The notes below the pieces were generated by a model, which worked only from the letters and a program-made list of their open reading frames with translations, did no database searches and was not told where the DNA came from. Of a stretch of 64,000 bases of DNA, positions 3,545-64,000 are shown piece by piece. Source of the DNA: Microthyrium microscopicum (taxonomy: Eukaryota); assembly GCA_010405405.1 (NCBI GenBank), contig MU004241.1, positions 434,001 to 498,000 on the forward strand. The letters run 5' to 3'. The position numbers and the translations under genes were made by a program. Positions within the stretch are counted from its first letter, which is position 1. The number at the start of each line of letters is the position of its first letter.

Positions 3545-4315
3545 CTATTTCGAGAACAGAATGGCCTCTGGCTCAATTTTCTCAACGACCAAGTACTCCT
3601 CCTCAAACCACTCGTCTCTTTTGGCATGCCACTTGAGGTCAATGTTGAGCTTGTCCATCTGCTCTTTGGCGCTCAACAATTTCCAAGGTCCTTGACAGAC
3701 CTTTTCGCGACTGATGAACACAATTCTAGTCTTGAGTCCACCTGGGTTCCCATATTCCCGAATCATCTTCTTTTCCTTGCGTCTGCCACGTCGGATGTGA
3801 CGCCCCATCTGAAACCAGTTCGCCGTTGTGGAAATGAAACAATTTCTATAGGCTGAATTGTCCAAGTGACATTTCAGTGCATATTTTCGGTCATCGCTGC
3901 CAGTAGGAAGGCAACGTGCGGTACTGAATCCACCGCCTTCCTCATTTAACCAAGGAATAGAATGACCGCAGGTTGCACGCATTAGAATGAGTGGTCGCGA
4001 AGATAATTCCTTATCATACTCTGCTGCTTTGACCGCGTCAATTGGGCGCGCCCATGGGTCGCCTCTCTTCGGGCTCCTGTAGAGAGCTGGTATTCTGTTC
4101 AGCTTCAGCATCTTCTCACGATGTTTGGCCCAAGCCTTCCAATCTTCCTCGGTCAAAACGTAATCGTCTGCGGTCTTGTCCACTTCATCCTCGTCCCGCT
4201 CATTCTCGGCCACGATGCCTGTTGGATGGAGACCGGGGTTGACGGCAAGCTCCTTGTCCTGCACTGGCTCATGTATGGCGATTGTCGCCGAACCACGCTG
4301 AGATGCTGCTGTCAT
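3545..4315 (-). CDS. Hypothetical cytosolic protein with a putative ADP-ribosyltransferase (R-S-E) signature
   Basis: 256-aa intronless ORF. LMRAT...GGGF...HLD...FISTT...EEEYLVVEKIEPEAI follows the order of enterotoxin-A-type ART motifs. No signal peptide. Confidence 0.55.
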   Translation of the reverse strand: MTAASQRGSATIAIHEPVQDKELAVNPGLHPTGIVAENERDEDEVDKTADDYVLTEEDWKAWAKHREKMLKLNRIPALYRSPKRGDPWARPIDAVKAAEYDKELSSRPLILMRATCGHSIPWLNEEGGGFSTARCLPTGSDDRKYALKCHLDNSAYRNCFISTTANWFQMGRHIRRGRRKEKKMIREYGNPGGLKTRIVFISREKVCQGPWKLLSAKEQMDKLNIDLKWHAKRDEWFEEEYLVVEKIEPEAILFSK

Positions 4316-5264
4316 TCTGATGCTTGGCTTGTTCTGGTCAAATTGTACAGCGTCAAGTGTGCTTGTTGCTTCTGCTCAAAGGTCTGTATTTGCTTGAGGA
4401 ACTGAAGTCTTTAGTCCCAGGTTGGCCTTCGTGGTGCGAGAGCGACGATGATCCAGGGTTGCCTGAAGTTTTGAAGACAATGGAAGCCCAGAACCGTATC
4501 GAGTCGGTTAAGGGAAGATTGATGATATCGTTGGCGCGGAGGCTTGTGATGCGAATGGGAGAGATGAAATATGATTTGATATAATATTACTACTCTATGG
4601 TCAGTAAGATGGAGTCTGGCAGTGAGAACGAGGTGCCAACAATGGTTTTAGTGATGTATTTTCGAATTGAATACTGACTGAAAACTCGAGCCAGCAGAAG
4701 ACAAGCAAAAGGATGCAAAAGACGAGATCCGGAAATTCTACTTGTGCAGCCAGAAGGCTTAAAAAGCAGACTGTGTGACTCTAAATCATAGTGGAAATCA
4801 AGATAAGCAGAGATAAAGATGGGTTTCGGGTGTCCAGTTTGTGCTGCGCAAAGAGTGCAGAGAATGATGGTAGAAAATAGCATACGGAGGAACAGCAGAA
4901 GTATTTATACTCCGTTCTTGAGACAGGCCGAAGACCTGAGCGAATAGCTCACTATATGAGACTTCGAACAGTTGAATGAACATTGGAAGAAAAGAGAGCA
5001 AGGAATCGGGTCTCATCAACAGTTCCTATCATGGCTACCTTATTAGGTAGTGTCTGCCTTTGGACGAAGCAAAATGTAGTTTCCCAAAGTGGCACATCAA
5101 GCGAATGATCATGCATTTGGATGAGGGCAATATATGCAACATATCAGTTGATGAAGGATTCTCATATCTTCATATTGTGCTTGAAGCGGCGCTGGCTACG
5201 GCGCACCCTCAGTGGACTATCACAAAGCAGAGTCCCTTAGCGATGATGTATGCTTATGAGTAAA

Positions 5265-9409: not shown

Positions 9410-9543
9410 GTCAAAACAAGCTCCTCAGCCACATAAAGGCTCCCGTCAATTTTCGTGTTCTGCCTCGACTTTCTTAATCATCGCAATCTTAGTTCGAGGG
9501 TTTCATATCTTCATTGAAATAAGCTTTCAGCTCTCGAGGCATT

Positions 9544-10854
9544 ATGGGTTCTACCTGTGGGCATAAAAACCTGCTTCTGCACCCGTCCAGTCATGCTGAG
9601 GCTGCTGGATATATCCAGCCAGACGCGTCAAAACGCGTCGCAGCAACAACGACATCAGGAAGAATAAGCAAAGCAGCGCAAAAGGCTGAAAGTGTCCCAT
9701 TATCTTCAGTATTTCCGGCACCTCTTGTTCTCCCTGGTGATAGCCTTGATTATGACCCGAAAGAGCCAGGACAGACTGTGCGCGCTTGGGTACAGATGAA
9801 GACTAGGAACGAGGTGACATCCCGACGGAAAACCATCTACGTGGTTGCTCCGCCAAGTTCCAATGACTCTACACTAAGTCGTCAGCTAGAGAAATGGACT
9901 CAACCAAAGACTGGGAAGGAAGGAACTTTGAAGGTCAACGGACCATCTACTCAGCATATTGTGGAATATTTGCAAGCATTTTATTCGGGGATGTCTGTAA
10001 AACGTCTGGATAACTTCTTCGAATTCACTACTTGGGACGATAAGCCATCATCAAAGGCTGATGCTCCTGACTTCATGGGTCTCATTGTGAAGAATGAGGT
10101 CGTTCGAATCAGGACGCGGTCTTGTCCTGACAATATGTTTGAACGACAACTCAACCTCAATGACCTCTTGGACGCGTGTATAACTGCACTACCAGCAGAC
10201 GCGTTCTCCATGGTCCTCTTGACGGATCAAGATCTTTACGAAGATGAAGAAGATGACTTTTGCTGTGGTCGAGCGTATGGTGGAAGTCGCGTATCAGTGG
10301 TCTCTAGCGCAAGATATCATCCACTTCTCGATCAACGACAAAGCGTGGAGCGTCTGCATGCCTGGCCGGCGTCTCACTGCGCAGACTATGTAAAAGCCTG
10401 CTGTTCAGAAGCCACAGGGAAGAAGGCCTCCAAGAAAAGGCGCATTGACCCAAGTCAAATGGCAAAAGAGCTGGATGTAGATTCAGCAATGCAGGCTGCT
10501 GTTCTAGCTTACAAGTCCGGGCCATCTTTACTCAGTGCACCCAGCCAAGAAACTCTCACTGGGCTTTGGCTAGGTAGAGTATGTCGAACTGTTAGCCATG
10601 AACTGGGGCACTGTTTTGGAATTGGTCACTGTCCATACTATGCATGCGCCATGCAAGGCACCGCTTCCATTGCTGAGGATGCTCGACAGCCACCATATCT
10701 CTGCCCAGTCGACTTGATTAAAGTTCTGAGAGCGACAGGAGCCAAGGAAGTTGACAGATATCATGCTCTTCTATCCTTCTGTAAGCAGCATCAGGATGTT
10801 CACCTGTTTGGAGCTTTTCGGGCCTGGATCGAAGTTGTGTTGAAAACCAGCTGA
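9544..10854 (+). CDS. Archaemetzincin-like zinc metalloprotease (peptidase M54)
   Basis: 436-aa intronless ORF with HELGHCFGIGHCPYYACAMQG (HExxHxxGxxH, Cys motif, Met-turn), DLYE...FCCGRA and YLCPVDL. Confidence 0.9.
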   Translation: MGSTCGHKNLLLHPSSHAEAAGYIQPDASKRVAATTTSGRISKAAQKAESVPLSSVFPAPLVLPGDSLDYDPKEPGQTVRAWVQMKTRNEVTSRRKTIYVVAPPSSNDSTLSRQLEKWTQPKTGKEGTLKVNGPSTQHIVEYLQAFYSGMSVKRLDNFFEFTTWDDKPSSKADAPDFMGLIVKNEVVRIRTRSCPDNMFERQLNLNDLLDACITALPADAFSMVLLTDQDLYEDEEDDFCCGRAYGGSRVSVVSSARYHPLLDQRQSVERLHAWPASHCADYVKACCSEATGKKASKKRRIDPSQMAKELDVDSAMQAAVLAYKSGPSLLSAPSQETLTGLWLGRVCRTVSHELGHCFGIGHCPYYACAMQGTASIAEDARQPPYLCPVDLIKVLRATGAKEVDRYHALLSFCKQHQDVHLFGAFRAWIEVVLKTS

Positions 10855-29638: not shown

Positions 29639-31613
29639 ATGGAGCCCAAATACCTGCTATCATCTTTCCAACAAGAAGATGATCACCTTCCGCGACGTCG
29701 AAAGCCGTTCAGATCAAAAGTCTTTCCAGAGAGATTACAGGTACATATCAGAAGGATGCGTCGCCACGATCCTCTTACCGCACTTGGTTACGACGTTTTC
29801 CTGAACACTTTGCTGCAGGTAGTTAGCCCGATTCCTAAATCGAGTACCCTGACATGAGTTATAGATTCAACAGTCTACAAGTTTCGCGTTGCTAACGGTA
29901 AACCTTGTCAACAAAGACTGGCATTCCATAGCTCAACCTCTCATCGATAGGCAACTCGACATTACCATCGGTGAACAACCAGTACGCAATAAGTTGTTGT
30001 TTGCTCGTTTGCAGGATGAAGACTTCAAAGCTCGTGTGCAGGAGATAATTGTGCGACCGACCGAAACCCAAGAATACTTGCCAAATGACGAAAATGAACT
30101 GGCCGTTCTTGCTACCTTCCTACCATGGATGAGGATCACTAGATTCCAGTATTGCTTCCATCCCAGTAATTTACGGCTCACTAATTTACGTAGTTGGAGA
30201 TTTCGCCAGATTCCACCAGACTTTTTGATAGAAGTCTTGCGCAACTGCGATGGCTGCGCTATCCAAATCAGCCCAAGCCAAGTATATCTCGGGCCTCATA
30301 ACCATGCTGCCTGGTATTGGGAGAAGGGCTTTGGCAGATACGCAGCTGGCGACCTATTGCGATTGCAGCTCATATGTTCCAAGATAGAGACTCTTCGACT
30401 AGAAGGGTCTTATGATCTAGAGGGATTCAATAATCTTGGCCGATTATTGGCGCTGTCTGTTCAGCTGTCTTCACTTGAGCTGAAAGTCACAATACCGGGG
30501 GTCCTAAGGTCAGAAAGATCAAAATGGCCAACCTGGTATGCCGGTTGGTTGTCTGAATCACTTTTGGGCCATGTTCTCAATCTACGCACCATACGATTAG
30601 ATGGGCTTTGCGCCTGCGATGACAATGAAGTACGTCGTTGGGGGCAAATCCTGCACTGGGAGACTCTAGAAAACGCCTCCTTCACATGCCCTGCCTTTTT
30701 GACTTGCGCGCCGAGCCGACTGATACGACTCCATACGGTCAGACTAAACATCGACAGACCTCAATCTGGCAATGGCTGGGATTCAGTTGAATATCATATA
30801 GGCCTGAGGCAAAATCATTGCTCATCTGCTCCCAGTGGAGATAGAGTTAGAGATGTCCTTTTGTCACTACCTCCGTTAAGAGAGCTCTGCCTAAAGAATG
30901 CAGGAGTTGACGATTCCATCCTGAGGCGACAACCGAAGCTTGTTCATCTTGACCTGATCAACGACCTAGTGCCAGGAGAAGTCACGGAATCACCATTTGA
31001 TATGTCCATATTCAGATCGATGCACAAGCACTGCAAACGGCTTAGATCACTGTCCCTTCGTCTTCACCTTGATCAACTATTTCCTTGTCTTACATATATT
31101 GCCCGCCACGGGCTGTCAGTATCCCATCTGATATTGGATCTCGGGATTCCAAGGAACAACCCAAATTACTTCGAAGAACGTCCACACCGCGAAGATTTAT
31201 CCACTTGTCTGACAATTTTCCAATGCGTTTCTTCTTTCACGGTCAGAACCTACTCAAATTGTTTGCTCTCGAACCTGAATATTGGGCTGTCTGTTTGTCT
31301 TCCAATGGATATGTCATACTCGACTGAGCAGGCTTTGTGGGTGCTTGCGGAGAGGGAATACCGCCTTGATGTCAAATATCAAGATGGCAAGAGTCATGCT
31401 GTTTTCGTTCCTGTTCCGATAGAGTCTAGTATTTCGCAAATGCAGGAAGCCAGCGGATCGGTTTATAAACGTACGTTTCAGCAACTTGATTTTTCAAAGA
31501 CCCAAATAACGGAGCTCGGTGGAATCAGCTTCGATGCAGTTAGCACTCCATATGGCTGTTCCAACATTGCATGGAAGACGCACCATCAACGTCGTGGGCG
31601 AGCTGTCATATAA
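29639..31613 (+). CDS. Fungal F-box/LRR-like hypothetical protein
   Basis: Exon 1 from ATG at 29639 (DPLTALGYDVFLNTLLQ), then a long Leu-rich ORF with LxxLxL repeats (IETLRL, LSSLEL, LRTIRL, LRELCL, LRSLSL). A probable in-frame intron lies at about 30150-30192. Confidence 0.6.
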
Positions 31614-40184: not shown

Positions 40185-42776
40185 CTACTCCCAGGTCGCA
40201 GGACCGAACTTGCCACCTGGAGCAGTGGCCTGAGTGGCGCCACCTTGGTAATCCTATGTGTCAATTAGCATGAGCCGCAAAGTAAGGAGCAGCAGTAAAC
40301 TTACCAGTGTCGTCGCAACAACGTTATTTCCCCACCAATTCGGCGGGTTTACCTGCGGCAACAGCAACGCAAAGAAGATGATAATGGTCGAGATGGCCAG
40401 ACCAGCATCTAGGGCAGCAGAGGTGACATAGTTGTACATCGACCACCAGCCACGATATCTATTGCGAATGAATTTGTTGAAGATGAATCCGACGAATCCC
40501 CAGGACAAGTACGTCAACGGAGTGGCAGGAGGCAAGTTGCCCGTACCGCCAAAGATGAGTGGCGCATTGATGTACTTGATAGGACTCTTTGGCCAGCGTT
40601 TAGCACCAAAGTATACCATGACAGGGAAGATGGCACCAACAAGCCAGAAGTATTGCAGATTCTTGTATGTGCCATCACCTGAAAAGATACGCTGAGGACC
40701 GATCAAGCCCCAGATAATACTCGCGTTGAAAAAGACGCGGCCGTTGGGGCAGGAAAACCGTGCGCTTTGCTTGAGATCGCAAATGTCGTTGATGTTGCCA
40801 AAAGCCCAGTAGAGAACAGCGACTTGGACAATGCAGCTCCAAAGAGAGGCGACTAGCTGACCCCAGAATAGAGTGCGCGGAGGAACCTTCATATAATGAC
40901 CAAGTTTGAGATCTTGGGCATATGTGAGACCCTGGGACATGCTGATGTAACCGTAAGTTTTAAAGCTCATCATGGCCAAGGGGCGACCTGGAAGCATGTA
41001 GCTGATGATGAACTCTGTGAAGACGTTGAGACCGATTTGAATGTTGGTAGTCGCTTGAATCATGCCAATTGGCACCTAGAATCGGTCAGAGATATACTGC
41101 GTAGGTTTCATTAATGGTACTTACCATCCAAACAATAGAGATGATAAGCGCTATGATCAATGCCCACCAAGTAAGATGGGTAGGGTACCCAAGCACTGTT
41201 CCAAAAGAAAATGCGACCATGATGACGAAGATGACACCGAACCACCAATCGGGTGCTTCCTTGTACTTCTTCATCAATTTCATATGGATATCATCCTCTT
41301 GCGTACGAGCTGCCTTGAATTGATACCAAATTTCCTTGCGGTGGAAGAGGTAGGTATGAACGATTACAGCAATGATCGTGGCAAAACTCAGACCATAAGT
41401 CAATCCGAATGTCGTGGACAAGAACAACGGCGAATATGATCTGTACTTGTCGACATCAAGCGTGTACTGATCGTTGATGATTCTGCTCACGTTGTACACA
41501 GCGCCTGTGTTATCATAACTGCTAGAGTCGCTCATTGGGAGATACTTGGCGTACCAAACTCCGGAGTAATGGATACCCATTGTTGTGACCCAGAAGAAGA
41601 TGAACATGCCGCCAACGGTATTCGCAATGGCGTGCCACGGTGGAAGTAGAGGACTGTATATATATGCAGTGATATATGTCCAATCAAAAGTGATGGGAAG
41701 GAGCGACAAGCCTGAAAATCCACCAAACAGCTGGTTAATCACAACGTTGTTGGGTCGAATCCAAGTAACAAAGGCGAACACACTGAGACCTTGCCAGATG
41801 AAACCAGGGAACCAGTACCAGACGAAGGAGCCCAGGCAGACAAATGAGAAGAAGCGATAACGAGATATCTGCCATCCGTTTGTGGTTGCTGGATCAGGCT
41901 TTGAATGGTCGTGGAGAGTGTAGAAAAGGGCACAGTTTGGTAGCACCGAAGGCCAGATCATAGCAGCTGGATAGACCAGGAATCGGCGGAAAACACCAGC
42001 AAGGCCTAGTCCAATCATCTGCGTTGATATGGTGAACAGGAGAGCAAATCCCCAGCCATAGTCAACCTTGTAGAAGCCGATGAGGGACTCTAGTCCGTAT
42101 GTGCTATATGCAGCACCTTGCGCAAATGACACGTTGGCCATGACTGTGATGAGAGCGTGTTCCTTCATGTTGAATGGGCCAGGATTCAGGGACCATTTGA
42201 GTCCAAAGGTGTTGAATTGATGTGATGGCATGAACTTGGCCCACAAGACACCAAATGGATAAGCCACCAATTGGGCCACAATGGAAGTAATCTGGATGGA
42301 TGGATTACGGAGAGAAAACAACAGGTTACAGCCAGTACCAATAGTCATGAAAAGCATTCCAAGAACCCAGGCGCGAACAGTGTTGGCAGGCATTTCCTCG
42401 TCCCAGTTGCGCACAGAGGCGACAACTTCGGGATAGGGACTGTTCTCTTCGAGTTCATGTTCCAAAGCGAGTTCAGCACCAACATTGTGCGAGTGGAGAG
42501 CATTCTCAATGGCACCTCGCTTCTCCTCTGTATATTAGTTAGTGGATGTGGTAGCAACAAATGCGCGAACAAACCTGGCAGATTGGGATCGAACTTATGC
42601 AAGTCATCAAACTGCTTCAAATGGGCCTCATCGACGGCGGCATTGGGAGGGGTAGTAGCATCAAGATCGTTGGAAGTGCTGTGTGATATTTTGCCATCTT
42701 CCGTAACTGGTGTCTCTTCTGCGACAACGCCTTGAGTGGGTTTAGAGCCCCAAGGCTTTCGAAAGCGGTTCATCAT
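40185..42776 (-). CDS. OPT-family oligopeptide transporter (isp4/OPT1-like), multi-exon
   Basis: Motifs ENSPYPEV, NTVRAWVLG, LNPGPFNMKEH, QDLKLGHYMKVPPR, SIIWGLIGP and NYVTSAALDAG. Confidence 0.95.
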
Positions 42777-51986: not shown

Positions 51987-54900
51987 AGGGAGGGTTAGCA
52001 AACCAAATCGTGCCAAATTGATTTAAGTGTTTTCTAGCTAAATCTAGGTTAGGGGGCGTTAATGCTTAGATCTATAAGTATTACGTAGGGATAATACGTT
52101 ATATATAAATTTCCTCTATATACGTTTTCCTATCATAACGTTGCTATATTTTAATCTATCTTAACTAAAAAGAGCCCAAAATAGATACTATTAAAGCTAA
52201 CGATATTAAGATAGCTATTATTAGTATTTTAGTAATACTAATATACGAGATACTTAATAATAAATAATAAAATAAAGAATATAGGTTACTAATTAAATAT
52301 ATACTATTTAATTAGTATCTTAAAGATAAGTTAAAGTAGATATATAAAGTTAAATATTAGTATGCACTATAGGCTTAGGTTAAAGTAATATCTATAATAC
52401 TAATTAGTATGTAATAGATTTAAGAAGCATAAAATATAATAGCTAGTAGAGATATTTAATCTTAATAACGTTCCTCTTCTATATTAAATTATACTACTAG
52501 ATAAAGCTAATTTCCTATTATATATAGTATGCTATAAGCTTACTAGAATTTATACCTATATTAATATTTATTAGTACTTTAGAAGAAGTATTAGTTATAT
52601 AAAGTTCTACTTTAATACTATATTATTATACTTATACTATAAATATATAAAGTTATTATTATAGTTTTACTCTTTCCTTATATTATTAAGATATAAATAA
52701 TACGCTAGAGCTATTAATCATACTAGTAGTATATATAAATTTTAAGGCTAGATTAATAGAATATATATTAATATTAGTAGGCTAAAGGGTACCTAGATCT
52801 AGTAGGAATTCTATAGTAGTTATAAAGAAAACTACTATATAAAAACGTAAGCTATAGCTATGCCTAATAGGATGTTGCTAGCACTTAATTATAGCTACTT
52901 TAGATCCTTAAACAATCCCCTAATATTAATTAATTCTAGTCTTAAAGATAGGATTTAATAAATATTTAGTAATAGTCTAAAGAAGCTATTATATAGCGAC
53001 GTAGCTTATCCTACTAATAATATAATTATATCTCTATACTAAGGCATAGAATTACTCCTTTAGTAATAGAACTTTAATCTATAATAAGCTAGTATTTATA
53101 TTGCTATAAAGTAAATATTTACTATTTTAAAAAACTTATAGTAAGGAGAAACGTCTAACTATAGATATAATATATAGATAGGATTAATACCTATAGTATA
53201 TTATTAGACTATATTAGTATTACTTTAGAACTATAGAATAGCATTATAAAGATATAATCTTATTTAAAGTCATTTTAGGGTTTTGCTACTATTAATTAAT
53301 AAATATTTAAATCCTATAAATATATTTAATATTCTAATACTATTAAAAGGAGAAGAATAAGATAATTTAAATAGTATAGAATAGTTATAGTATTTATTAA
53401 AGATATTAAAGTTATAAAGTAAAGTTAGATATTCTTATTAAAGGAAAAGAAGTTAATAAGGTAGAGTTAGCTAATTATTTAACCCTTTTATATACTTTTA
53501 AAGCTTTTAGTATCTATTATAAGATTTATATAAAAACTATATTCTAACGCTACTACTAAATTATATAGAGAATATTAAAATACTCTTACTAATATTTATT
53601 ACTTATAAGACTCTTTAATAACTTCTTTATCTCTATTATCTCTAAGCGTAATCTATTTACCTCTTTCCTTAGACCTATAACTTTACCTTCTTTATTACTA
53701 CTACTACTACTACCTATAAGATTATTAGTATTACTACTACTATATTTATTTTAATCTCTAAGAGCCTAAATAATTAATTTAGATATCTTTATAATAGTAT
53801 CTTTTAGTATACAAACTTCCTTAGTCCTTTTATACTTCTTCTATACTCTTAGAGTTAAAGTAGAAGCTCTTAAAAAGTAAGGAATTACTAAAGAAGTAAA
53901 GGTACCTATAGGATTTAGCTATAGGTTATTTAAACTAATATCTTATTATATTTCTACTAATATTTCTTTAAGATTATTAGATAATTCTTTAACGTTACTA
54001 TTACTATCTAAAAGAATATTAATTAATAGAGTACCTTTATCTATAAATTATTAAGCAAGATTATTACGTATTATAAAGCTATCTTCCTTCTATACCCTTT
54101 TTATATTAGAGGTACTCTTTTTAATAATAATAATATTATAATGCTATGTCTAAATAGGTTTAAATTAATTAAGCACCTATCTAAATTTATTATATAGAAT
54201 ATTATACTCTAATAAATTCTTCCTCTTTGCTATTTATAGAGGAATTACTCTCTCTATTATTACTATATATACTACTCTAGTAGGTTCCTTATCTATTATA
54301 AAGTTCTTCTTAGTTTTAAAGAAGATAGAAACTATATACTACTACTAGATTTTCTATTCTATAATAGCTTTCCTACTAATACTACTATAAGTATTAATCT
54401 TCTCTAAATAATAATATAAAACTATAGTTAACGTTAGTATAGCCTAATTAAGGTTTTACTTCCTACTCTTTAAAGGCATTAAAGATATTAGAATTATAGA
54501 AACTATAAGTACTAAAGTTATAAAAACTATAAGTACTAGTATAGTAGTAAATACTTACTATAAAGAGAAGAGTAAATAAAGCTTTAGTTAGCTCTATAAT
54601 AATAATATTAGCATAAACTAATTTAAAGATAGTAACATAGTACTATTTTAGTATATATCCCTATATTATAGTTAAGGCTAGAGATCCTATAGTAGCAATA
54701 GTAGCATTTACTAAGAATTAGTTCTCTAGCTAAATTCTTATATCTATAAGCCTATAGTAAAGTTAAAGTTAGGATTTTAGCTAAAATACGCCCTACTATA
54801 AAGTATTTATATAAGAGTTATCTTATTAACGTTATAGGCTTCCTTAAACGACTCTAAATACTATAATTCTTATAGTTCTTATAATTCTTATAATTCTTAC

Positions 54901-55310
54901 TATTATAAAGAACGCTAGATTAACTCTACTAGTAAGGAATTAGTATTATTTAGTAAGTATTATAGATTTAAAGATATACTAACAATATAGATAGATTTAT
55001 ATAGTATTTTACTACTTATAGCTATACTAAAGATTTATTTAACTTTATTAACTTTAATAGCTTTAGCACTTTTAGAATACGCTCCCCTAATAATATTCTT
55101 AGACCTATAGATTTATAAATTAATAGAATGTCGTTAAAATAATAATAAGCTAATCCTATCTTAGTGCTACTAAACCCTTTTAATCAAATCAAATTAAGGT
55201 TAAGCCGCTAGACCTAAGGTCTAGCGGGTCGACCTTGATTTAATTATCTAACGATTTTGGGTAAAGATCTGCAAATCAATTTGGCACGATTTGGTTTGCT
55301 AACCCTCCCC
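51987..55310. mobile_element. RIP-inactivated PIF/Harbinger DNA transposon (3324 bp)
   Basis: About 38-bp TIRs (G/A)GGGAGGGTTAGCAAACCAAATCGTGCCAAATTGATTT, 3-bp TSD ATT (51984-51986 and 55311-55313), and a de-RIPed DDE_Tnp_4-like motif LLY(G)DVAYP at about 52986 on the plus strand. Confidence 0.88.
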
Positions 55311-61563: not shown

Positions 61564-62859
61564 TCAATCATCCCAGGAGTGCTTGAAAGCAGACTCCGGT
61601 CCGTGTTTCCATTTCAAGGCCGTCATGACTTCATGCTCATGTCCCCATTCCCTCAACTTATCATAGTTGCGGCAAGTCTTTGTCAGCCTCAGGTCTGGCA
61701 ACGGTACGCGCCGGTATTTGTTATACGACCAGGAGATTGTGGAGACATCTCCGTGGCACATTATCGAACGGCGAAGATTGTCGATGCAGTGATCTATGGC
61801 CCAGTTAGTGGATGTTACCTCTCGTCGATTGGACTCTGGTTGGCCACGACAGCAAATGGCCGTGGCTCTCAAGAGCCAGCTCTTCAAAACCAGCCACAGG
61901 GGACGTGGACTCACCATAATGCTGCGCATCAACGCTGGTGTAATTACGGGAACCATCTTTGTTGATAAAGTCATCGTAGTCGCTCATATACCGATCCGGA
62001 TAGAGTGATTTTCGCAGTACGTTGAGGCAGTGTAGATCGTGGAAGACGGTGAGCTGGGTCACGTATAGATCGCTGTTTGGCAACTGGACAGTGTCCAAGG
62101 TGAGTTGGCGCGCATCGTCTTTGGTAACCCAGCTGTTCCCAACTATTTCAGTGTCAGTGATGACAACTCGAGGAAAAGATGGTTCGTCTCACAGTCATAT
62201 AGGTCTATCCATTTCTTGTCCGTTGCATTCGTGGGCAATCCGTCAGTGACGTTGCACATATATGGTGTTTTCTGGTAAAAGTTCTCCCCGAAGGTTGTGA
62301 TCTCGTAGGATATCGCTGAGGAAGCGGGTGCTGGTTAGTTTGTTAGTCGAAAGCTAAGACTTTCTGCTATCAGATGTACTCAAGTGCTGCGAAGGACTTA
62401 CAGAACAATTGCTGAGAGATATCTCCGCACATTGGGCTACCGTTGCGAAGGACATTTGAAAGGAGCATACCACTCAGGCAAATGATAACCGTGTAGAGAA
62501 AAGTGAAGTGTAAAAATCTCGACGATGTCCTTGAAATCTGTCAGTATAAGTTAGGATCAATGCCAAGTCTATTTGAATAGACTGAGGTCTTTTCATGGTG
62601 AAATTCCGAATGACTTCATGGAGGCCTTCTCTTCTTGCGGGAATTATAGCACTCGGACAGGAACACATGCTATGGGAGCCATGGAAGGTACTGAAACCCT
62701 GCACTGGTTTTGCTGTTTGTCATGTCGTCACAACATGAGGTTTACCACAAGGAAAACTTACCATTTTCTCACTTCTTCAATGTGCGCAGAAACGCCTTTC
62801 TCAATCCGAACATTGTTGGCTTCTTCATCTGGCAAAGCGGCATAGGTTTTCAAACTCAT
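61564..62859 (-). CDS. DUF3328 / UstYa-like oxidase (multi-exon)
   Basis: Spliced TM helix FLHFTFLYTVIICLSGMLL, then LF|SPASSAI, DKKWIDLY, VFHDLHCLNVLRK, H-Y-D-H-C-IDNLRRSIMCHGD (across intron 61914-61794) and KTCRNYDKLREW: two HxxHC motifs. The first exon (MSLKTYAALPDEE, ATG 62859) is plausible but its splice to the next exon is unresolved. Confidence 0.92.
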
Positions 62860-63476
62860 CGTTGGACCAATATCAGTTATCCAGACGCCCAATGCAGACA
62901 ATTAACCAACAAACAATAGAGATCAGTATATTTTGACTGAACACTGGAAACGTCTGTAGCCTGTAGGCCCAGGGATCTAGAAGCATCCGCCTCGACATAA
63001 TTGGCCTTGAAATAGCTTAGTGACTCTTCGGCGTTTACTTTCTGATCAGTCACCTGCCAATTTAGATTTCTAGGCAGTTCCACGAGCTCTAATTTCACAT
63101 TAGTGTTCACAATCTCAGCCTAATGCTTCAAAAAGACCTAGCTCTTTCCCAGATAATGCTTTCGCCACTCCAAGCCAGGCTGCTTTGAGTATCGCCTTGC
63201 CGCAAAGGAATCCTCAGAGCCTCACAACACGCGCTAAATGTCACAATGGTGAGCCTCATGGCAGGCACGCTTTGAATGAATCACACGGTGACCACGTTCA
63301 GTGACAGCACCAAGCTAGTCCAAGAAAGGGAATGTCATCAATTCTAGGCACTACTTAAGCTCTTCTTCCACTCGAATTGTTCTTCATCCTTCATCCTCTT
63401 CCCGCACACTCTCATCCACAACACATCCAACCAATTCATCTGATCACTTATCGCATCTACATCCAAATCCTTCACC

Positions 63477-64000
63477 ATGAAGCTCAGCATTGCTGTTGCT
63501 TCTCTCACTCTCCAAGCCCTCGCGGTTTTGGCCGCCCCTGCTGGCACTCCAGCAGTCAAGGGTAAGTTGAAAATTCCATCTCCCTTAAGCATATGCTAAC
63601 TCCTCATTTAGCTATTCGTGCCTCTGTCGACGAGCTCAGCATCGCTGAGTGGAATGGTCTTGCCTTCAAACGCGATGAATTCGAATTGAAGTCCAAGGTT
63701 GGTGACAAGTCCAAGGTCGGCGACAAGTCCAAGGTCGGCGACAAATCCAAGGTTGGCGACAAATCCAAGGTCGGTGACAAGTCCAAGGTCGGCGACAAAT
63801 CCAAGGTCGGCGACAAATCCAAGGTCGGCGACAAATCCAAGGTCGGCGACAAGCGCGGATTCACTCACTACAACGGAGGCTGGGTCGCCAAGCTCAAGCC
63901 AAAAGAGAAGCGCGGATCTGCTCACTACGATGGAGGCTGGGTCGCCAAGCTCAAGGACAAGCGTACGGTCAACTACAACGACTGGAAAGCCAAGCTATTC
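63477..64000 (+). CDS. Secreted Kex2-processed repeat protein, putative RiPP precursor (3'-truncated by window end)
   Basis: ATG at 63477 in CACCATG context; signal peptide MKLSIAVASLTLQALAVLA; intron 63562-63611 (GTAAGT...GCTAAC...TAG); then AIRASVDELSIAEWNGLAF-KR-DEFELK(SKVGDK)9R-GFTHYNGGWVAKLKPKE-KR-GSAHYDGGWVAKLKD-KR-TVNYNDWKAKLF. The frame is open to the window end. Confidence 0.88.
63692..63853 (+). repeat. Coding minisatellite, 9 x 18 bp (SKVGDK)
   Basis: Unit TCCAAGGT(C/T)GG(C/T)GACAA(A/G); all variation falls at third codon positions of the plus-strand frame. Confidence 0.97.

Follow-up and report, generated by a model that had tools for sequence, protein, structure and literature searches.

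We analyzed a 64,000-nucleotide stretch of the Microthyrium microscopicum genome (GenBank assembly GCA_010405405.1, contig MU004241.1, positions 434,001 to 498,000, forward strand; hereafter the window, whose own numbering is used throughout), at the right end of which a gene for a DUF3328 oxidase of the UstYa type stands head-to-head with a putative gene for a secreted peptide precursor carrying Kex2-type cleavage sites. The oxidase gene occupies 61564–62859 on the minus strand, and the precursor gene begins on the plus strand with an ATG at 63477 and is still open at the window end. A first-pass annotation of this DNA had estimated the distance between the two at about 620 bp; the divergent intergenic region (62860–63476) measures 617 bp from start codon to start codon, with a G+C fraction of 0.457.

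The oxidase gene comprises five exons (62859–62762, 62529–62402, 62330–62193, 62142–61915 and 61793–61564, minus strand), the stop codon lying inside the last, and their spliced translation of 273 residues is identical, letter for letter, to P0151, a database entry described as a hypothetical protein of M. microscopicum, a Dothideomycete, which was also 100% identical to the exon-4 query. The HMMER comparison with PF11807 proposed in the first-pass annotation gave 158.8 bits for the whole protein, against a curated cut-off of 25 bits (E = 2.4 × 10−46, profile positions 9–220 of 220), and the two largest exon open reading frames (ORFs) matched the same Pfam profile separately (E = 2.4 × 10−13 and 1.1 × 10−15). 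Both HxxHC motifs that had been read in this multi-exon gene are present in the spliced translation: HDLHC at residues 156–160 (62027–62041, minus strand), and HYDHC at residues 196–200 (61786–61921, minus strand), where intron 4 divides the codons into 61921–61915 and 61793–61786. Two such motifs form the proposed active site of DUF3328 proteins (PMC12048977). Read by eye, residues ~38–60 are hydrophobic, a possible N-terminal membrane anchor, and four N-x-S/T sequons come thereafter. ESM Atlas placed P0151 among ascomycete UstYa clusters, while a PDB sequence search returned two matches only (E = 0.33 and 0.41), which were counted as none, and a search of longer proteins with exon 4 gave nine candidates, of which the self-match alone held, with no oxidase relatives obtained.

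The facing gene opens with a short predicted exon (63477–63561, plus strand) whose product is signal-peptide-like by inspection, consisting of MK, a 17-residue hydrophobic core and then AAPAG. A predicted 50-nt phase-1 intron follows (63562–63611, plus strand), beginning with GTAAGT, containing a GCTAAC branch site and ending with TAG, after which exon 2 (63612–64000, plus strand, open at the window end) would encode a pro-region, a hexapeptide array and modules delimited by KR. In translation, four KR sites are visible, the first of which (63668–63673) closes the pro-region after the signal peptide. Between the first and second sites, which bound the longest KR-delimited piece in view (59 residues), lie nine tandem KSKVGD units (63689–63850; Tandem Repeats Finder: period 18, 8.9 copies, 93% matches), absent from the first-pass description although they account for 54 of the 129 exon-2 residues in view and are the largest visible feature of the protein. 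The modules that had been described were recovered: module 1, GFTHYNGGWVAKLKPKE, has 17 residues (63857–63907) between KR sites at 63851–63856 and 63908–63913; module 2, GSAHYDGGWVAKLKD, has 15 residues (63914–63958) and is followed by KR at 63959–63964; and module 3, which begins TVNYNDWKAKLF and has at least 12 residues, ends with the window (63965–64000). The two complete modules are near-identical, Tyr occurs in all three, and the shared motif can be written Y-[ND]-(GG or D)-W-x-A-K-L, with a different Tyr-to-Trp spacing in module 3. A 391-nt contig from run X3, which is likely the source DNA run, begins in the array (63823) and stops ~213 nt beyond 64000; this break may reflect another repeated stretch soon after 64000, possibly further modules.

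Codon usage and the purely synonymous variation among the repeats support the predicted reading frames of the precursor. Under a codon log-odds score trained on eight Pfam-supported ORFs of the window, exon 1 scored +11.9 in its predicted frame, compared to −12.8 and −9.2 in the other two, and exon 2 was positive only in its predicted frame (pro-region +9.7, array +37.5, modules +25.7), with a UstYa exon as control reaching +21.9. The nine 18-nt units vary at 3 of 18 positions; each of these is a third codon position, and in the KSKVGD frame every change is silent, while in the other two frames the same changes would produce altered residues or stops. The coding frames of the two exons differ by just the offset that a phase-1 intron of the predicted kind calls for, and this intron resembles, in size and signals, all eight of the RNA-validated introns (48–71 nt) within the same 5.5 kb.

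Transcription was assessed in run X5, the sole RNA data set, whose RNA label is a guess; it behaves as RNA because eight introns are spliced in its contigs and an intergenic stretch lacks cover. The spliced introns are five in the N-myristoyltransferase (NMT) gene, two in the mitochondrial L36 gene and one in the UstYa gene (intron 2, 62331–62401). Cover of the UstYa gene was thin (depth 3–8) and included a contig, 61915–62142, that corresponds exactly to exon 4, and the contig at 63396–63751 over the start of the precursor gene had a depth of 377, with 335 in the region after the repeats. There was no contig depth between 62548 and 63283, and this uncovered part carries no evidential weight. 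The precursor gene is thus transcribed, likely from a start near 63396. Both genes are transcribed in X5, at depths of 377 versus 3–8, between which contig depth cannot rank.

Searches for relatives of the modules found none. A search of proteins of similar length gave 5487 word-sharing candidates and none at E ≤ 0.01, a search of longer proteins with residues 80–130 gave 20 candidates and none at E ≤ 0.1, and ESM Atlas returned no usable match to the modules. Neither search of the protein collections produced an entry for the precursor itself, whereas the UstYa gene gave a self-match. With phmmer, 326 matches at E ≤ 0.001 were obtained among 1.84 billion representatives; in the best 150 of these the best stretch lay over the hexapeptide array, and the nine of the 150 that were inspected were rejected as unrelated repeat proteins, while the other 176 could conceal a weak true relative. 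A metagenome scan with the 50-residue module stretch yielded 311 pattern matches, three of which passed tblastn; all three were rejected as chance, being short and on contigs that looked bacterial by eye, and in two of them a differently framed, longer ORF overlaps the match. Of the literature searched in full text for six motifs from the modules and repeats, one unrelated paper alone contained any, and the module motifs were not in the supplements of PMC7329392, PMC6339444 or PMC9632046, nor were "Microthyrium" or "BT63DRAFT" in those of PMC7329392, supplements whose texts are possibly incomplete. Judged by title, none of 22 papers naming M. microscopicum concerns peptides, and none of the 30 papers listed, of 57 matched, brought the species together with terms for ribosomal peptides. 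On sequence comparison, then, the core peptides are new: nothing matches them.

Dikaritin clusters are recognized by a DUF3328 gene near a gene that encodes a signal peptide and repeats, none shorter than 10 residues, set apart by kexin sites (PMC9632046). Repeat proteins processed by Kex2 (KEPs), for their part, are defined by a signal peptide for the endoplasmic reticulum (ER) and at least three tandem repeats of at least eight residues each, separated by KR, KK, RK or RR, with none above 100 residues (Umemura 2020, PMC7329392). We take the pair as functional because its layout agrees with the published cluster criteria and because KEP and DUF3328 genes adjoin, and Tyr is enriched, in a survey of 1461 genomes, where 31.8% of 9399 DUF3328 genes had a KEP gene no more than 15 genes away, with a peak at the adjacent position, and repeats containing Tyr made up 65.6% in DUF3328-accompanied KEPs compared to 38.2% otherwise (PMC7329392). 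From its sequence, the locus is probably one more candidate for the dikaritins, an already known class of cyclic peptides from fungi, and pairing of the precursor with the UstYa oxidase is likely. That the two genes form a functional dikaritin-type (UstYa-dependent) ribosomal peptide pair we consider somewhat better than an even bet, with a probability of roughly 0.55. The first-pass annotation had gone further and proposed a new system of peptides that are synthesized ribosomally and modified post-translationally (RiPPs); the dikaritin layout and the unmatched cores stand, but the claim of a new system was overstated, since the design is the known one of a KEP with DUF3328.

Under the dikaritin-type reading, the 50-nt intron would be removed and the spliced precursor would then enter the ER, where the luminal domain of the UstYa protein would oxidize or crosslink the Tyr-containing modules. 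A Golgi Kex2-type protease would cleave behind every KR, and the products, short cationic peptides bearing the modification, would be secreted, with the (KSKVGD)9 stretch acting as a spacer or pro-region and freed as a separate 59-residue piece. By analogy, the modification could crosslink side chains or oxidize the peptide in some other way, at Tyr or close to it. The type of linkage is not inferable, because the modules lack Tyr-x-Ile and DUF3328 enzymes have other chemistries, including hydroxylation, chlorination and transacylation (PMC12048977). The Tyr-Trp or His-Tyr crosslink suggested at first pass is pure conjecture. A bolder version, in which the locus would represent a new dikaritin subclass whose single UstYa oxidase spans a Gly-Gly hinge with a crosslink between Tyr and Trp (or His) in lysine-rich 15–17-residue peptides, and whose output is controlled through regulated splicing of the 50-nt intron, is a long shot; if true, the Tyr-Trp/His ring type and the peptide size would both be ones not described for the UstYa family.

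Comparison with the closest known systems shows both the resemblance and its limits. The ustiloxin (UstA with UstYa/UstYb) and phomopsin systems combine, as predicted here, an ER signal peptide, repeated Tyr cores and Kex2 sites (PMC7329392) with a DUF3328 oxidase bearing HxxHC motifs encoded nearby (PMC7329392, PMC12048977), and they need a tyrosinase and two or five DUF3328 proteins (PMC7329392). Here, by contrast, one DUF3328 gene is in view, no tyrosinase occurs in the 61 kb to the left, and the modules are 15–17 residues long, with H-Y-[ND]-G-G-W followed by a basic tail and with the array upstream. The core of asperipin-2a is FYYTGY and is unrelated to the modules found here. Its minimal design, with one DUF3328 protein per precursor, is nevertheless similar (PMC7329392). 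Candidate dikaritin clusters described in Venturia inaequalis, Cin3 among them, fit the same operational definition in a Dothideomycete host, and for a long time their precursors passed as ordinary secreted proteins (PMC9632046); the genes for them are annotated, whereas the one here is unannotated and its motifs do not appear in the supplements of PMC9632046. Pheromone precursors of the alpha-factor type share the predicted signal peptide and the dibasic-bounded peptides (PMC7329392). In the survey, however, a DUF3328 gene hardly ever lies beside a pheromone-type KEP (PMC7329392), as it does beside the precursor here, and the exon-2 translation did not match the MF_alpha-type Pfam family at E up to 1.

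Several observations weigh against a functional dikaritin-type pair, including the splicing data taken up below. Only two complete modules and one partial module are in view, and the right flank lies beyond the window end (64000). Among 48 large ORFs scanned with Pfam between 1 and 61.5 kb (16 + 32), there was no accessory tyrosinase, methyltransferase, peptidase or dedicated transporter gene, all of which are typical of dikaritin clusters but not obligatory (PMC12048977). The ustiloxin and phomopsin cores YAIG, YVIG and YVIP carry a Tyr-Ile ether (PMC7329392), in contrast to the modules here, which contain no Tyr-x-Ile. No relative of the precursor that might speak for conservation of the pair emerged from the protein or metagenome searches. 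In the survey, 2560 KEPs were without any homolog and cores were extremely diverse (PMC7329392). Finally, DUF3328 proteins also act in non-RiPP pathways (PMC12048977).

The last of these points is shared by the alternative that survives best, although we regard it as unlikely, namely that the precursor is an ordinary KEP whose cationic peptides leave the cell in linear form and without modification, for instance to signal or to act as antimicrobials, with the UstYa protein serving another pathway, possibly one located right of the window. It accords with the survey, in which 78% of 7878 KEPs were without a DUF3328 neighbour (22%, or 1758, had one) and linear products were the rule for pheromone-type KEPs, and with modules that are unlike any characterized dikaritin core named in that source (PMC7329392). 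The RNA contig depths, ~50-fold apart at 377 versus 3–8, point the same way insofar as contig depth, which cannot rank genes, is informative. A precursor unconnected with its neighbour would nonetheless have to stand exactly where DUF3328 genes peak around KEP genes (PMC7329392), chance adjacency should be rare given the handful of each per genome, and Tyr is present in three of three visible modules.

Splicing of the precursor transcript is the main difficulty. The contig at 63396–63751 is colinear with the genome through 63562–63611, no splice junction across this interval was reported among X5 contigs, and the similar downstream depth (335) therefore indicates that the unspliced form is not minor; with the intron left in, a stop ends the first ORF after 40 codons. 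The gene is indeed absent from the protein collections searched, which gave no self-match, but its first-pass description as spliced is not confirmed: in X5 the assembled form is unspliced, and the predicted joining of signal peptide and repeats lacks confirmation there. Retention could be regulated or could be a choice of the assembly, in which rare variants are lost, such that a minority spliced form may exist. It may also account for the lack of the precursor in protein collections, and annotation likely missed the gene through its short first exon, its repeats and the intron retained in the available RNA.

These data also suit the view that no secreted precursor is made, the 50-nt segment being kept and the repeat ORF remaining untranslated or being read from an ATG at 63593 without a signal peptide, as in a decaying or non-productive gene, or in a non-coding RNA or one regulated by intron retention. 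The eight introns removed from neighbouring transcripts within the same 5.5 kb make the colinear contig more telling, and the protein collections searched hold no gene model. We nevertheless judge this distinctly unlikely, as precisely the two frames that splicing would connect give positive codon log-odds, the nine repeat units vary synonymously only, the donor, branch site and acceptor are canonical, and contigs would not be expected to preserve a minority spliced form.

The KSKVGD array barely reaches the threshold of the Pfam Hexapep profile (PF00132; 27.1 bits, cut-off 27, E = 3.1 × 10−6), and its unit fits the hexapeptide pattern [LIV]-G-x-x-[STAV]-x. A single-sequence AlphaFold2 prediction of the precursor fragment had a mean pLDDT (predicted local distance difference test) of 46.3, with no strands and no confident fold. 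That the array is the working part of a secreted repeat protein, for example left-handed beta-helix-like or surface-binding, with incidental KR sites, is quite improbable: its share of visible exon 2 (54 of 129 residues), the Hexapep score and the 326 repeat-driven matches in the representative library speak for it, but no fold was predicted, the nine matches inspected among the 150 listed were unrelated repeat proteins, and two near-identical KR-bounded modules come after the array.

If the pair is functional, the dikaritins, a class of which few products have been solved and whose enzymes had no significant match among solved structures, would gain an unannotated precursor with an orphan core, and one oxidase paired with a Tyr/Trp core would offer a compact system for exploring the abilities of UstYa enzymes. 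A survey confined to annotated proteins, as the one of 1461 genomes was, would miss this precursor because the gene is unannotated. One more candidate beside the ~1758 known pairs of KEP and DUF3328 would be no surprise to specialists; what deserves following up is that so strongly transcribed a precursor keeps its predicted intron in the available RNA.

The left side of the pair is housekeeping in character, as the first-pass annotation had noted for L36 and NMT. Pfam matches there comprised mitochondrial L36, NMT, an epimerase-family protein, Med6, an MMtag protein and an OPT transporter, followed further left by GH127, GNAT, alkaline phosphatase, arginase-family and M54-peptidase ORFs. Within the window, neither a second UstYa gene nor another copy of the precursor came up by tblastn. 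Together with the housekeeping left flank, this favours the dikaritin-type pair, and further cluster genes, if any, can only be found beyond the right end of the window. An X5 contig (60695–61794) covers the L36 5′ end with both introns spliced and runs ~685 nt past the L36 stop; it reaches the exon-5 acceptor of the convergent UstYa gene, such that the 3′ transcript ends overlap or abut.

The OPT transporter gene (40254–42534), seen as two ORF pieces (E = 1.4 × 10−120 and 2.1 × 10−68), lies 19 kb left of the pair and is separated from it by housekeeping genes, with no evidence of a link. Several large ORFs are without a Pfam match, such as that at 29865–31610 (582 codons). At 52000–55000, the G+C fraction falls to 0.19–0.23, compared to 0.41–0.53 around it, and no ORF of at least 90 codons is present; the segment looks like an AT-rich repeat relic, possibly degraded by repeat-induced point mutation. 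Toward the left end of the window are a DUF7587 ORF (3548–4375) and the M54 (archaemetzincin-type) peptidase ORF (9523–10851).

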